Source: Escherichia phage teqskov. From it: 64,000 bases of DNA. The stretch lies in sequence record NC_054934.1, one strand, 5' to 3'. Numbering within the stretch: position 1 is the first letter of the stretch; the number at the start of each line of letters is the position of its first letter. Of the stretch, positions 11,496 through 20,549 are shown piece by piece. The notes beneath the pieces are model-generated. The model ran no database searches and was not told where the DNA came from. It saw nothing but the letters and a program-made list of their open reading frames with translations. The translations under genes and the position numbers were made by a program.

Positions 11496-11729
11496 ATGAA
11501 AACGTATCAAGAATTTATTGCTGAAGCTGCTGATGTAAAAGTTGAGTTTATTTACATTGGCAAGAAAGATAAAATGGGCGAAATGCCTCATGGAGTTCTT
11601 CGTGATGCATTAGATAATTTCGGTCAACTCGGTGGTGAAGAGTTTGGTGATTATTTTGTTATCTATGGACCAGAAAAAGTCATCGAGAAATGGGCTGATA
11701 AATATAAATCAATTTTTCGTAAAAAATAA
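11496..11729 (+). CDS. Internal-protein-like ORF with canonical capsid-targeting N-terminus MKTYQEFIAEA
   Basis: 77 aa from ATG 11496; GGAGA SD; N-terminus matches the T4 IP targeting sequence as remembered. Confidence 0.6.
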   Translation: MKTYQEFIAEAADVKVEFIYIGKKDKMGEMPHGVLRDALDNFGQLGGEEFGDYFVIYGPEKVIEKWADKYKSIFRKK

Positions 11730-15964: not shown

Positions 15965-16177
15965 ATGACTACTTTAATTATTTGGTTCGACGAAAATGAA
16001 GAAACATACTGCGTGAACATTGGCGAAAGCCCAATGCCAGAATTTGAATCTTCAGATAAAAACTCGGTTGTATCTTGGGCTGAAGGTTATAAAGCAGCAA
16101 AAGGCGATGTTGAAATAGTTTACAAACTCTTGGGAGTAGAGTATAATACTCCCACGGATTATAAAACCCTTAATTAA
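15965..16177 (+). CDS. Hypothetical protein
   Basis: 70 aa ORF with GGAGA SD. Confidence 0.45.
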
Positions 16178-16191
16178 CTAAAGGAAATGCT

Positions 16192-16785
16192 ATGAACATG
16201 CTGAAGAAAATTGTTGAGTTTATTCGCACTAAACTTGGTTCTGCTATGGCTAAAAATTTATCTGTTGAAGAACAGTATACTGCTGCGGCAGCAAAACTAC
16301 TTGATAAGATTAAAGATCTAAAAACTGCTTCTGTTAAATCTATTAATGAAGAAAAACGTATTCGTGAACTTATTGTCGAAAAGAATCGACAGGCCGAATC
16401 AAAAGAGCGTGAAATTCGCAAGCTTCTTTCTGAAGGTCAAGATGTAACAATGCATGCTAAACTCGGCTTGCTATATCGTCGAACAGCTGAACAGTTGACT
16501 ACTAAAGCTGATGGTTATGCTGAAATGCGAATTGAAATCGCCAAGAAAGTAGTTGAATTGGATGATGCTCGCCAAGAACTTGCAGTTAAATTGGAATATA
16601 TCCGTGAAACTCGTGCAGCAAATGCCCTTGGAATTAGTACTGCTGATGATGTAGTTGAAATTGCAGCGCTAACTAAAGTTGATATTGAAGATACTCTCGC
16701 CCGAGTTGAAACCTTTAATGGTAATATTTCTGGGGTTGAAACTACCTCTGCCGATGTTCAGGAATATATTAATTCTCTGAAATAA
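16192..16785 (+). CDS. Coiled-coil protein (possible PspA/IM30-like architecture)
   Basis: 197 aa, heptad-rich charged helices; similarity to PspA is by eye only. Confidence 0.45.
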
Positions 16786-16791
16786 TGATAA

Positions 16792-16805
16792 GGGGCTTCG
16801 GCCCC
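16792..16805 (+). terminator. GC stem with UUCG tetraloop (ggggc-ttcg-gcccc); stabilising hairpin or weak terminator
   Basis: Perfect 5 bp GC stem immediately after the stop codon; no clear T-run. Confidence 0.4.
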
Positions 16806-16826
16806 TATTACTTGGAGTAAGTAGGA

Positions 16827-17432
16827 ATGAAAATGCAAAGTGATTTCAATTCAATGTTTGAAGAGTTCCAAAGACAGGTTGATGTTCCAGACCAATTACT
16901 AAATGCTCTTAAACGCATGGCAGAAGGACGTAATTACTATTGGGGGTCTTCATATGAAACTGATGAAAGTCTTTCTGGATTTTATAAAGGTAAAAAGTCT
17001 TTAATACGTCCTGGAATACTTATTAACAGTATTGAATCAATTCATTTATTAACATGCGATTTTGACGTTGAATTTACTGATTTTGTTTCTCCTGAATGGA
17101 CGGTCTGTTATTTAAACGACGATTATGATTATCTTGGCGTTTATAGTTTAAGTGATGCATGGTTTAAACGTAATTTACAAAAGTCAAATTTATTCTATAT
17201 TGATACTACTGTAAAATTTCAGGGCAAGAAATATTTCTTTACTCTTATAGTTGATTCTGAAACGAAGCATGAAAATAAACGTATTCTTAGTAAAAAGAAT
17301 ATCTTAACTATTGTCGATGTTCTTTTTGATAAATTCGTAGAAAATCCTAATTTTGAAAGCGATTTATTATTAGAAAAATTTGTTAAGGAATGTAGAGAAT
17401 ATGTCAAAGCCATCACTATACCTTCCAAGTAA
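16827..17432 (+). CDS. Hypothetical protein; first of four tandem genes sharing a C-terminal FVKECR motif
   Basis: 201 aa; C-terminus EKFVKECREY. Confidence 0.5.
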   Translation: MKMQSDFNSMFEEFQRQVDVPDQLLNALKRMAEGRNYYWGSSYETDESLSGFYKGKKSLIRPGILINSIESIHLLTCDFDVEFTDFVSPEWTVCYLNDDYDYLGVYSLSDAWFKRNLQKSNLFYIDTTVKFQGKKYFFTLIVDSETKHENKRILSKKNILTIVDVLFDKFVENPNFESDLLLEKFVKECREYVKAITIPSK

Positions 17433-17793
17433 ACCCTTAAAGTATGAATTAAAGCGTCAGATAATTTCTACTGATGTGTTAATAGGTCCTGTGGTAGCTG
17501 TATCATTTGTGATTCTGCTGATTGCTGGAATGGTTATAGACGTTATGACTGATATTGAATCTGGTGCAATATTTGGAGCAACACTAATTCTTCCATTGGT
17601 AGTTCCGCTTTTATTAGTACCTATAAATTGGATAGGATATTGGTATCAAGGAAGACACTATCGTAAACGTGTACGTGATTGGAAAGCTCAGTGTAAAAAG
17701 ATTAAAAAGGAACATCAGCTTAAACTTGCTGCGCATGAATTTGATGAAATTATGAAATTTGTTAAGGAATCACGATGCAAAAGCCAAAACTAA
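17401..17793 (+). CDS. Small membrane protein (two predicted TM helices), C-terminal FVKESRCK
   Basis: ATG 17401; hydrophobic core VVAVSFVILLIAGMVIDV and ILPLVVPLLLVPI. Confidence 0.5.
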   Translation: MSKPSLYLPSKPLKYELKRQIISTDVLIGPVVAVSFVILLIAGMVIDVMTDIESGAIFGATLILPLVVPLLLVPINWIGYWYQGRHYRKRVRDWKAQCKKIKKEHQLKLAAHEFDEIMKFVKESRCKSQN

Positions 17794-18137
17794 ATAAAGT
17801 CAAATATTCTCTTCCTGAGGCACTATTAATTCTTGCCGTATCAGCATTTGCAGCTCTTGCAGGTAGTCTTATTGGATTGTTAATTGACTGTTTTATTTTA
17901 AACATCGACGGCACAGTAATTATAACAGAGGTTTGGAGTGAACTTCGTTTTACTATAGCGATTTCATTATTTTCATTCTTTGGTACAATGTTATATTTTC
18001 ATTATGATAATTTTAAAATAAATTGGCAAAGAAAAAAGGATTACAAAATACAATTAAAGGAATATAATAGCTACATGTCTTATATTGAAAAAGAATCAAT
18101 GGAAGAGTTTGTGAGTGATTGTAGGAAAATTAAATGA
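17775..18137 (+). CDS. Small membrane protein, C-terminal FVSDCRKIK
   Basis: 120 aa; TM segments; stop overlaps next start. Confidence 0.5.
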   Translation: MQKPKLNKVKYSLPEALLILAVSAFAALAGSLIGLLIDCFILNIDGTVIITEVWSELRFTIAISLFSFFGTMLYFHYDNFKINWQRKKDYKIQLKEYNSYMSYIEKESMEEFVSDCRKIK

Positions 18138-18622
18138 TTTTAAAAACTCGCTGGTATGATTTAGATGATGGGGACGATGGCATTTCAGTTGATAGAGTTG
18201 ATTGGAGTGGCTGTTCTGAAGATACAAAGAAACGATTAATTAGGGAGTTTAGAATGGGATATCAAGCAGCTAAGCCATCTACTGTAACAGATGATAAATT
18301 CGTGTGTATTCAAAATGGTCGTGCTAAGTTAACGAACGCTGATTGGTTCACAGATAAGAAGGTTATTCTGTGGTATATTATTAGTTTTCCTGTGACATCA
18401 TTTGTATTTTGCTTCTTTGGAGAAAGTCCAGTAGGCAGAACGGAAGATTGGATTCTTTTAATTATACTTGTTAATATTTTTACAGCAACAGTACTATCAG
18501 GAATATGGTGCGTGTTCATTGAAATGCCATGGCGGTTACGTAGGCAGCAAAAGATTTTTGATGAAAAGAAATATACTCAAAATTTAAATAATTTTATCAC
18601 TGAATGCAGGAAATTAAAATGA
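18134..18622 (+). CDS. Membrane protein, C-terminal FITECRKLK
   Basis: 162 aa; TM segments; stop overlaps nudE start. Confidence 0.5.
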   Translation: MILKTRWYDLDDGDDGISVDRVDWSGCSEDTKKRLIREFRMGYQAAKPSTVTDDKFVCIQNGRAKLTNADWFTDKKVILWYIISFPVTSFVFCFFGESPVGRTEDWILLIILVNIFTATVLSGIWCVFIEMPWRLRRQQKIFDEKKYTQNLNNFITECRKLK

Positions 18623-19059
18623 AAACATTATCAGCTGGTATTATCTTTATGACAGAAGATAAAGATTTATTTATGGGACGAGTTACTGGTTCTCGTAAGC
18701 CTGGAATGATGGCACATCGCTGGGATATTCCAAAGGGGCGTGTAGAAAATTCTGATTTAAGCGCATTAGATGCAGCACGAAGAGAATGCTCAGAAGAGAC
18801 TGGTTTTAACAATTATAATCCAGACCTTCTAGAAGACCTAGGTGTATTTAAATATTCTAGTAATAAAGACTTACAGTTATTTTATTATACGATTCCAGTA
18901 GAGCATGAGATGTTCAGAAATTGCCATTGCGAGTCTTATTTTGAAAATAAAGATGGTGTTATGATTCCAGAGATGGATGCTTTTGCCCTTATTCCTCGTA
19001 CTCAGTGGCAATATGTGATGGGTCCTTCACTTTACCGAATAATGAACAGCCTCTTTTAA
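18619..19059 (+). CDS. nudE: Nudix hydrolase NudE (e.1)
   Basis: Nudix box GRVENSDLSALDAARRECSEETGF; ATG 18619 with AGGAAA SD; directly upstream of e as in T4. Confidence 0.8.
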   Translation: MKTLSAGIIFMTEDKDLFMGRVTGSRKPGMMAHRWDIPKGRVENSDLSALDAARRECSEETGFNNYNPDLLEDLGVFKYSSNKDLQLFYYTIPVEHEMFRNCHCESYFENKDGVMIPEMDAFALIPRTQWQYVMGPSLYRIMNSLF

Positions 19060-19590
<531 letters not shown>

Positions 19591-19649: not shown

Positions 19650-20066
19650 ATGACTCGTATTAATTTGACTTTAGTATCTGAACTTGCTGATCAACATTTA
19701 ATCGCAGAATACCGTGAATTGCCACGTGTTTTTGGTATAGTTCGTAAGCATGTGGCAAACGGTAAGCGCGTTAAAGATTTTAAAATATCTTCCGAGTTTA
19801 TTTTAGGTTCTGGTCATGTTACGTTCTTTTACGATAAGTTAGAATTTTTGCGAAAGCGTCAATTAGACATTATAACGGAATGCTTAAAACGAGGGTTCAG
19901 TATAAAAGATACTGAAGTTCCTGACATCAGCGATATTCCAGTAGAATGGAAAAATGATTATAATCCATGCAAATCAGCTATTAAATTGAGTCAACAACGA
20001 CTTGATGAAAAAATTTTAATGAAACCACATTGGTATAAGTATTACGGTAAAAATATTTACATTTAA
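19650..20066 (+). CDS. denV: Endonuclease V (pyrimidine dimer DNA glycosylase)
   Basis: 138 aa; [17 protein letters not shown]...WYKYYGK matches remembered T4 DenV. Confidence 0.93.
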
Positions 20067-20075
20067 AGGAAACAT

Positions 20076-20549
20076 ATGAAAACATATCAAGAATTTATCA
20101 CTGAAGCAGCTATTAATTCTCAAATTATTGCTGAATCTTTTACCGATCTTTTGAAATTTAAAAAAGGTCAAAAAATCACTGCTGTATTGGATGATGGTAC
20201 AGAAGTTGAGATGGATGTACAGGGATATAATTATGCAGTAGATGGAAAACTGTATAATAAATCTCATGCTAAATTTGATTCATTTGACGACTTTGTTAAT
20301 ACAGTTGAAGATGAAAAAACTCGTAGATCCATTGCAACTGGTGATGCTAAGGTTCTTATGGCACATGGTCATGAACGCATTCGCGCTAAACAGAATAAAA
20401 TGGGTGAAGATAATTTTGCATTAGTTGGTTATCAATCTGGTAAACAAACTTATGGCTATCAACGTACTGCTACCATGTATAATAAAAATGGTAAAATCGC
20501 TTTCGTGAATAGTAAAGGTTCTATTCAGTACGTTAAATCGTTCAAATAA
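20076..20549 (+). CDS. Internal-protein-like ORF with capsid-targeting N-terminus MKTYQEFITEA
   Basis: 157 aa; basic; ipII/ipIII locus next to denV, but size differs from T4 IPII (100 aa) and IPIII (194 aa). Confidence 0.6.
   Translation: MKTYQEFITEAAINSQIIAESFTDLLKFKKGQKITAVLDDGTEVEMDVQGYNYAVDGKLYNKSHAKFDSFDDFVNTVEDEKTRRSIATGDAKVLMAHGHERIRAKQNKMGEDNFALVGYQSGKQTYGYQRTATMYNKNGKIAFVNSKGSIQYVKSFK

Follow-up and report, generated by a model that had tools for sequence, protein, structure and literature searches.

The stretch of Escherichia phage teqskov DNA analyzed here (sequence record NC_054934.1; 64,000 nucleotides (nt), referred to as the window) encodes, between positions 16,827 and 18,622, four consecutive small proteins that carry versions of the same short peptide at or near their C-termini. 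The window belongs to a Tequatrovirus: its part 16700-18700 shares 99.3% identity with Escherichia phage AndreasVesalius and has matches in 503 phage records, nearly all of them Tequatrovirus, and the four open reading frames (ORFs), as judged by sequence, are the T4 genes e.5, e.4, e.3 and a full-length e.2. They are part of the plus-strand string e.6-e.5-e.4-e.3-e.2-nudE-e, the order of which is the same in T4 (NC_000866) and in annotated relatives. The e.6 gene (16192..16785, +) encodes a 197 amino acid (aa) putative coiled-coil protein resembling PspA, Vipp1 and ESCRT-III and is separated by a 41-nt gap from e.5 (16827..17432, +), which encodes a soluble protein of 201 aa ending with LLLEKFVKECREYVKAITIPSK. 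The next three genes encode proteins with two predicted transmembrane segments each, namely e.4 (17401..17793, +; 130 aa, ending with EIMKFVKESRCKSQN), e.3 (17775..18137, +; 120 aa, ending with MEEFVSDCRKIK) and e.2 (18134..18622, +; 162 aa, ending with NLNNFITECRKLK). The Nudix hydrolase gene nudE (18619..19059, +) closes the overlapping string and lacks the motif.

Assignment of the four proteins to T4 orthologous groups is supported by synteny and by full-length matches to PHROG 2607 (e.5, E = 4e-107), PHROG 2604 (e.4, E = 5e-70), PHROG 2330 (e.3, E = 5e-58) and PHROG 2203 (e.2, E = 1e-77), none of which has a known function. Searches of Pfam-A, NCBIfam and PADLOC yielded no family, either for these proteins or for a sample of 33 motif proteins. 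A newer Pfam release includes PF26876 (Phage_T4_Y06P) for e.5, PF26873 (Phage_T4_Y06O) for e.4 and PF26896 (Phage_T4_Y06M) for e.2, which are names derived from UniProt placeholders and are given here from precomputed matches on a locus of identical architecture. Word-indexed searches with e.3 and e.5 retrieved T4-type relatives only, all with at least 75% identity in the case of e.3 and mostly with more than 93%, with one at 47%, in the case of e.5; an exhaustive HMMER search with the e.5 profile against 1.84 billion representatives returned 5 matches, all of them close relatives or fragments. Literature searches revealed no paper on e.2-e.5 or on the motif. Some relatives of e.3 (P0001, P0006, P0013 and P0020) are labeled 'sulfurtransferase' or 'DNA primase' in public records; these names find no support in the sequences and are probably propagated misannotations.

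Transmembrane segments were called by Kyte-Doolittle hydropathy, which bears out the earlier suggestion that e.4, e.3 and e.2 are small membrane proteins. There are two strong hydrophobic segments in e.4 (approximately aa 31-49 and 57-75) and in e.2 (approximately aa 77-95 and 106-124, following a soluble N-terminal part of ~76 aa), one strong and one weaker segment in e.3 (approximately aa 19-37 and 59-77, respectively), and none in e.5 and e.6. The N-termini of all three membrane proteins and the tails that follow the second segment are rich in lysine and arginine, and the loops are short and acidic. Under the positive-inside rule, basic tails are located on the cytoplasmic side. Given this charge distribution, we infer that e.4, e.3 and e.2 are hairpins with both termini inside the cell, and therefore that their copies of the motif face the cytoplasm.

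The motif occurs far above the chance expectation and is restricted to these gene ends, as seen in the window and in two whole genomes. The window, translated in six frames, has three matches to the pattern F[VI].[ED]CR[KE], all at the ends of e.5, e.3 and e.2, against a mean of 0.01 in 100 shuffles; a relaxed pattern applied to the last 25 residues of the 174 ORFs of at least 50 aa recovers only e.5, e.4, e.3 and e.2 along with two antisense ORFs. Within the complete 166-kb genome of the Tequatrovirus KNP1, F[VI]..CR is found only in e.5, e.3 and e.2, and the C-terminal motif matches in the genome of the Moonvirus KM16 all fall within one 5-kb cluster. A preliminary description of this DNA had already claimed that the four gene ends share a C-terminal motif, and the coordinates, sequences and shuffle statistics agree with it. 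The ends that it gave stand for e.3 (FVSDCRK, encoded at 18108-18128) and e.2 (FITECRK, 18593-18613) and require correction for the other two genes: FVKECRE of e.5 (17379-17399) is located 11 residues ahead of the stop, and e.4 carries a degenerate variant, FVKESRCK (17758-17781), with serine at the cysteine position followed by R-C-K. The shared peptide has about 10 residues: a hydrophobic residue, E/D/N, any residue, F, I/V, any two residues, C and R. In an alignment anchored on the phenylalanine, information content is high only at positions -3 to +5. Across 103 distinct DNA instances collected from 50 loci and the window, position -3 is hydrophobic in 91 and position -2 is mostly E, N or D; these two positions lay outside the search pattern and nevertheless prove to be conserved. 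Phe112 and Cys116 belong to the small set of residues that never vary in 40 e.3 sequences from four genera, and among e.5-like proteins (11 sequences, nine genera), no alignment columns other than those of the motif F and C are invariant. Across genera, the e.5-type proteins are mutually related (hhalign 96% and 84% between subgroups). In the AlphaFold2 (AF2) model of e.5, which is of low confidence (mean per-residue confidence score, pLDDT, 58), the motif falls in a predicted C-terminal helix, 180-195. The 13 best fold matches of this protein in the PDB were small alarmone synthetases (RelP/RelQ); this likeness is distrusted and probably meaningless because the TM-scores are ~0.14, the probabilities are below 0.5 and sequence profiles give no support, the e.5-family profile having no match in the PDB.

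The junctions in the window have the layout typical of translational coupling, with the Shine-Dalgarno (SD) sequence of the next gene inside the upstream coding sequence and with overlapping starts. The overlaps measure 32 nt for e.5/e.4, 19 nt for e.4/e.3 and 4 nt for both e.3/e.2 and e.2/nudE, the latter two being of the ATGA type. The SD of the next gene is contained in the motif codons themselves, as AAGGAA (K-E) in e.5 and e.4 and as AGGAAA (R-K) in e.3 and e.2, 5-9 nt ahead of each ATG, so that the previous remark that the shared DNA holds the SD and the overlapping start of the downstream gene is accurate for all four junctions. In addition, an exact 16-nt repeat, AAATTTGTTAAGGAAT, is present at 17376..17391 (+), where it encodes K-F-V-K-E and holds the e.4 SD, and at 17755..17770 (+), where it holds the e.3 SD. 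The peptide could accordingly be viewed as a by-product of ribosome-binding sites (RBS), with the 3' ends being forced to encode the SD and start of the next gene, as suggested by the location of the SD at four of four junctions in the window, by the two ATGA overlaps and by the rare AGG arginine codon in e.3 and e.2. The codon survey of the 103 instances argues otherwise: the phenylalanine is encoded by TTT in 71 cases and by TTC in 32, the cysteine by TGC in 52 and by TGT in 51, and the arginine by all six codons; SD-like tetramers occur in just 48 of the 103, and the distance from the end of the motif to the stop ranges from 0 to 25 residues. Because all synonymous codons are used, the SD is often missing, the stop distance varies and positions -3 and -2 are conserved, selection must act on the peptide and not on the mRNA. 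Furthermore, F, I/V and C bear no relation to an SD, and neither the other overlapping junctions of the window nor the 7 kb upstream of e.6 in the 40 loci described below encode such a peptide. An origin from RBS alone, contradicted by the codon and distance data, is rejected, and we assign it only a minimal probability. Compared with translationally coupled ATGA-type genes in general, which all four junctions resemble, coupling accounts for the choice of the K-E and R-K codons but not for F, I/V, C and R, nor for motifs located far from the next start in other genera. In this phage, the motif codons have in addition come to serve as the SD of the next coupled gene (AAG GAA, AGG AAA). The preliminary description named as its refutation the case that similarity would not extend past the last residues and that the shared ones would be fully explained by RBS constraints; the first part largely holds, similarity beyond the last ~10 residues being weak, and the second does not.

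The distribution of the motif extends well past Tequatrovirus and past the four genes to which the preliminary description had limited it. Mosigvirus orthologs, at ~40-47% identity, retain it, and the 16-nt DNA identity between the ends of e.5 and e.4 is not kept there. The motif is also found on unrelated-looking proteins encoded 3' of e.6 in Mosig-, Dhaka-, Gapriver-, Kanagawa-, Marfa-, Ishiguro-, Moon-, Karam-, Tulane- and Pseudotevenvirus; in an Aeromonas phage, three successive soluble proteins carry it, and in Pseudotevenvirus, a 316-aa motif protein is encoded beside nrdD/nrdG and not beside the lysozyme gene. Linkage to e.6 was assessed in 40 IMG/VR loci anchored on e.6 homologs, with 7 kb on each side and ORFs of at least 50 aa. 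The pattern F[VIL]..C[RK] has 127 matches in these loci; 120 of them share the strand of the genes, lie 0.6-6.2 kb 3' of e.6 and are no more than 30 aa from the C-terminus, and there is no C-terminal match to this pattern in the 7 kb upstream of e.6. Most of the loci contain 3 or 4 motif genes. In 35 of 38 loci, the motif is carried by the first ORF after e.6 that reaches 100 aa, and a variant, F[IV]NYCI, is present in two of the three loci in which this ORF lacks it. Altogether, the motif marks an array of one to five genes directly 3' of e.6 in T4-type phages of many genera, which combines a soluble e.5-type protein with several small proteins forming two-transmembrane hairpins. The connection to the lysis genes that had been drawn from the gene neighborhood finds no support in this comparison, given that motif genes in other genera are always downstream of e.6 and not beside e, the lysozyme gene. 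A degenerate DNA scan of IMG/VR for h-E-x-F-I-K-E-C-R (where h is a hydrophobic residue) returned 16 stretches: in five, the motif is at the C-terminus of an ORF, and all these are T4-type; another five are mid-chain in marine phages, and the rest are chance matches.

The carriers of the motif are highly diverse. After removal of the motif, 137 distinct motif proteins, drawn from the 40 IMG/VR loci, 10 phage loci and the window, form 24 BLAST families, 12 with transmembrane segments and 12 without; the 33-protein sample spans more than 20 PHROGs, and the soluble carriers, found alongside the two-transmembrane hairpins, range from 80 to 316 aa. Many gene bodies with a single tail in a single variable region would be compatible with a recombination linker, that is, a shared border sequence that allows T4-type phages to swap or insert small genes, with the insertions inheriting the resident tail. 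For the hyperplastic regions of T4-type phages, there are descriptions of gene modules being shuffled at conserved boundary elements, and the exact 16-nt repeat at two junctions points in the same direction. It is, however, the peptide and not the DNA identity that is kept between genera, and homologous recombination requires DNA identity, so that this mechanism could account for the spread of the tail but not for its upkeep; we consider it improbable as the explanation of the motif.

Common ancestry of the four proteins is detectable only in part. Pairwise comparison with BLAST and MAFFT shows marginal similarity only. With hhalign, the 43-residue tails of e.4 and e.3 align with P = 6e-6 and those of e.3 and e.2 with P = 3e-5, values that no column-shuffle control reached. 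When the motif is removed, P is 0.0045 for e.4-e.3 and 0.057 for e.3-e.2, and e.4-e.2 is not significant; the motif-less e.4-e.3 score exceeds the maximum of 100 column shuffles, which were run on the full-length e.3 alignment with the motif still in. As e.4 and e.3 also share an N-terminal M-x-K-P-x-L, they are plausibly old paralogs. By contrast, e.2 and e.5 have nothing but the tail in common with the rest of the four; a derivation in which e.2 would be a membrane-anchored version of the small soluble motif proteins was considered and dropped, phmmer of e.2 against the other motif proteins having found nothing past the tail. The alignments proposed in the preliminary description thus reveal marginal e.4-e.3 homology past the last ~10 residues and none elsewhere, and the tandem duplication of a gene-junction unit that it envisaged is weakly supported: the e.4-e.3 similarity and the 16-nt repeat are in its favor, and the dissimilarity of e.3-e.2 and e.4-e.2, the different, soluble fold class of e.5 and the absence of the 16-nt identity from Mosigvirus are not.

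These data bear on the possibility that the tail is a relic of common descent, the motif genes being tandem paralogs that diverged past recognition and kept the last helix for folding, stability or membrane contact, without any shared partner. Clustering of every motif gene within ~6 kb is expected under this scenario, as are the features common to e.4 and e.3 (including the two-transmembrane plan and the weakly similar tail), the exact 16-mer at the e.5/e.4 and e.4/e.3 junctions, and the two adjacent e.5-like paralogs of Ishigurovirus. It is harder to reconcile with the lack of significant motif-less similarity for e.3-e.2, for e.4-e.2 and for e.5 compared with the membrane proteins, and with the range of carriers from soluble proteins to membrane hairpins; moreover, an intrinsic role leaves unexplained why one short segment is the most conserved one across differing architectures. 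On balance, we deem common descent alone unlikely, if still to be taken seriously.

The constant neighbor of the motif genes, e.6, has homologs in 1105 phage records. Its AF2 model (mean pLDDT 75.5, 83-95 over the hairpin) begins with an N-terminal helix that is followed by a long helical hairpin and additional helices, with helices at 2-22, 25-80 and 86-144. Foldseek against the PDB ranks Vipp1 structures in its first 11 places (best E = 4e-4), and archaeal CdvB and PspA come next; a HMMER search of the PDB with the e.6 profile produced weak, collinear matches to Vipp1 (E = 0.4-4.7), and a Pfam-A search with e.6 gave no match to PspA_IM30. For an e.6 homolog, a genome announcement reports an HHpred probability of 99.9% to E. 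coli PspA (4WHE) (PMC7862958), which is, as far as we found, the only mention in the literature of this likeness. On the basis of the structural matches, the weak profile matches and the published one, e.6 is classed as a PspA/Vipp1/ESCRT-III-like protein. GenBank records often label it 'host specificity protein'.

Taken together, these observations lead us to favor, tentatively and without regarding it as quite probable, the explanation that the tail is a common docking or assembly peptide that links soluble and membrane proteins to one partner, most plausibly e.6. An amphipathic helix is envisaged in which motif positions -3, 0, +1 and +4 make up one face, followed by a basic residue; it would let varied membrane anchors and the soluble e.5-type protein bind the same partner. 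The putative polymer of e.6 is the favored candidate for this role because PspA-family proteins that work together with small membrane partners offer the closest working analogy; alternatively, the motif proteins might bind each other. The two-transmembrane proteins would then serve as anchors for e.6, and a membrane-maintenance or membrane-remodeling activity would be brought to the inner membrane of the infected cell. Several observations weigh against the docking peptide. There is no cysteine in e.6, so a disulfide or metal site formed jointly with this protein does not account for the near-invariant Cys-Arg pair, and strict conservation of a cysteine is seldom seen with simple helix packing. 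The e.4 family has S, I or V in place of the cysteine, with I or V in the e.4 orthologs. No homology of e.4, e.3 and e.2 to PspB, PspC or LiaI is detectable with Pfam and NCBIfam, helicity of the motif is weakly supported given the poor model of e.5, and the clustering next to e.6 could equally stem from local duplication history. Finally, in the Karamvirus PG7 (L011, 4156-4679), the two ORFs that follow e.6, of 79 and 95 aa, are without the motif.

The docking explanation has to be weighed also against a role of the small membrane proteins on their own, in superinfection exclusion or envelope change, as the preliminary description proposed, in which case the Cys-Arg of the tail would be a regulatory element or one sensitive to redox state, with no connection to e.6. 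In size and two-transmembrane topology, these proteins are similar to small exclusion proteins known from phages; Imm and Sp of T4 and SieA of P22 are likewise small phage inner-membrane proteins from early regions, and the strong conservation of the Cys-Arg pair would fit such an element. However, the only match is a weak one of e.3 to a SieA-like PHROG (E = 0.076), with no significant similarity to exclusion or defense families in PHROG and nothing in PADLOC, so that the exclusion idea finds no support; Imm and Sp are set apart here without a sequence comparison. Imm, Sp and SieA are not known to end in a common C-terminal motif or to have soluble relatives. Soluble cytoplasmic proteins carry the phage motif equally, and adjacency to the lysozyme gene is limited to Tequatrovirus. 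We therefore give independent action of these proteins little credence.

The docking peptide invites comparison with bacterial systems in which PspA-family proteins are often co-encoded with small membrane proteins by which they are bound and anchored, such as PspB/PspC, and LiaI for LiaH (PMC9239133). Like PspA-PspB/C of E. coli and Yersinia and LiaH-LiaI of Bacillus, e.6 is found directly upstream of genes for predicted inner-membrane proteins of 117-162 aa with cytoplasmic tails, and this gene order is conserved across genera. The differences are substantial: e.4, e.3 and e.2 show no sequence homology to PspB, PspC or LiaI (Pfam-A at E up to 1, and NCBIfam), the system is phage-encoded, there are several families of putative partners per genome together with the soluble e.5-type protein, and the C-terminal motif shared by the e.6-linked genes has no counterpart in the bacterial PspA and Lia systems. 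Another parallel is with the MIT-interacting motifs (MIMs) of ESCRT-III, which dock on the MIT domains of Vps4 and similarly consist of a short amphipathic helix at the C-terminus, in which acidic, hydrophobic and basic positions combine and which recurs in several proteins of one membrane-remodeling system. The MIMs are, however, located on the ESCRT-III subunits themselves, whereas the phage motif is on the neighbors of e.6 and not on e.6; the MIM1 and MIM2 consensus, to our knowledge, includes no cysteine, and no MIT or AAA partner was identified for the phage motif.

For decades, the T4 genes located between e and the tRNA cluster have carried the label 'hypothetical', and databases list them as separate families. 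One short tail joins about two dozen such families to the sole neighbor with a recognizable fold and turns them into a testable system. This previously unremarked motif thus unites orphan families around a phage PspA homolog, with the function put forward as a hypothesis. If the tail is a docking peptide, it provides a handle on the role of the phage PspA homolog in infection and on the targeting of ESCRT-III-type polymers; if it is not, a strictly conserved cytoplasmic Cys-Arg on unrelated proteins still calls for an explanation. A bolder proposal, which we regard as rather doubtful, is that T4-type phages possess an ESCRT-III/PspA-type system of their own, built on e.6 as the one polymer-forming protein, with the tail acting as a portable address peptide for e.6 binding or co-assembly on at least 24 families of membrane anchors and soluble factors. 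Each phage could then set the place and time at which its PspA-like protein works on the inner membrane of the host, with possible uses including holding the proton-motive force until lysis and resisting membrane-targeting host defenses.

Some further features of these loci are worth recording. In the T4 reference genome (NC_000866; L003, ~1991-2461), e.2 encodes only 102 aa and is a shortened form of the 162-aa protein: -1 and +1 indels separated by ~77 nt move the reading frame onto a stop codon, and the 3' DNA remains intact, with both the motif codons and the nudE overlap (ATGA) preserved. The short T4 e.2 is either a laboratory-strain pseudogene or an old sequencing error. The 79- and 95-aa ORFs of PG7 look like a split or decayed e.5-type gene, and three motif genes are located further 3'. 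The marine viral contigs recovered in the DNA scan (L025, L033, L034, L037 and L038) encode a 114-125-aa protein with the sequence ...ALE[NG]FIKECRG..., 40-42 residues from the end; the same nine residues are found here in an unrelated context, between capsid-like genes, with no e.6 nearby. A second tandem family is present just 3' of the motif genes in Mosig-, Dhaka-, Gapriver-, Kanagawa-, Marfa- and Karamvirus (L004, 3357-4151; L005, 3165-4410; L006, 5364-5937; L007, 5216-6054; L008, 5067-5871; L011, 4802-5328) and comprises three to five small soluble proteins, most of which end with W-[VIL]-S-S-S-x-x-C at the stop and others with shorter versions, e.g., W-x-P-S-S-C or W-Y-T-S-S-C. This family is absent from the window.

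In the gap between e.6 and e.5, there is a GC-rich hairpin (AGGGGC-TTCG-GCCCCT; 16791..16806, +), which is stable, contains a UUCG loop and is not followed by a T-run on the plus strand. A promoter-like site 5' of e.6 (TTTACA-17-TATAAT; 16119..16147, +; 11/12 consensus match) is a candidate early promoter for the e.6-e.5-e.4-e.3-e.2-nudE string; it is a match to the consensus only, and the region as a whole is not enriched in such matches over shuffles. Downstream of nudE, comparison with annotated relatives and T4 NC_000866 places the lysozyme gene e at 19096-19590 (+) and denV at 19650-20066 (+). Three plus-strand ORFs, which start at 11496, 14916 and 20076, share the N-terminus MK[ST]Y-x-x-F-[LI]-x-E, which resembles the capsid-targeting N-terminus of T4 internal head proteins; the ORF at 20076 occupies the position of ipII.

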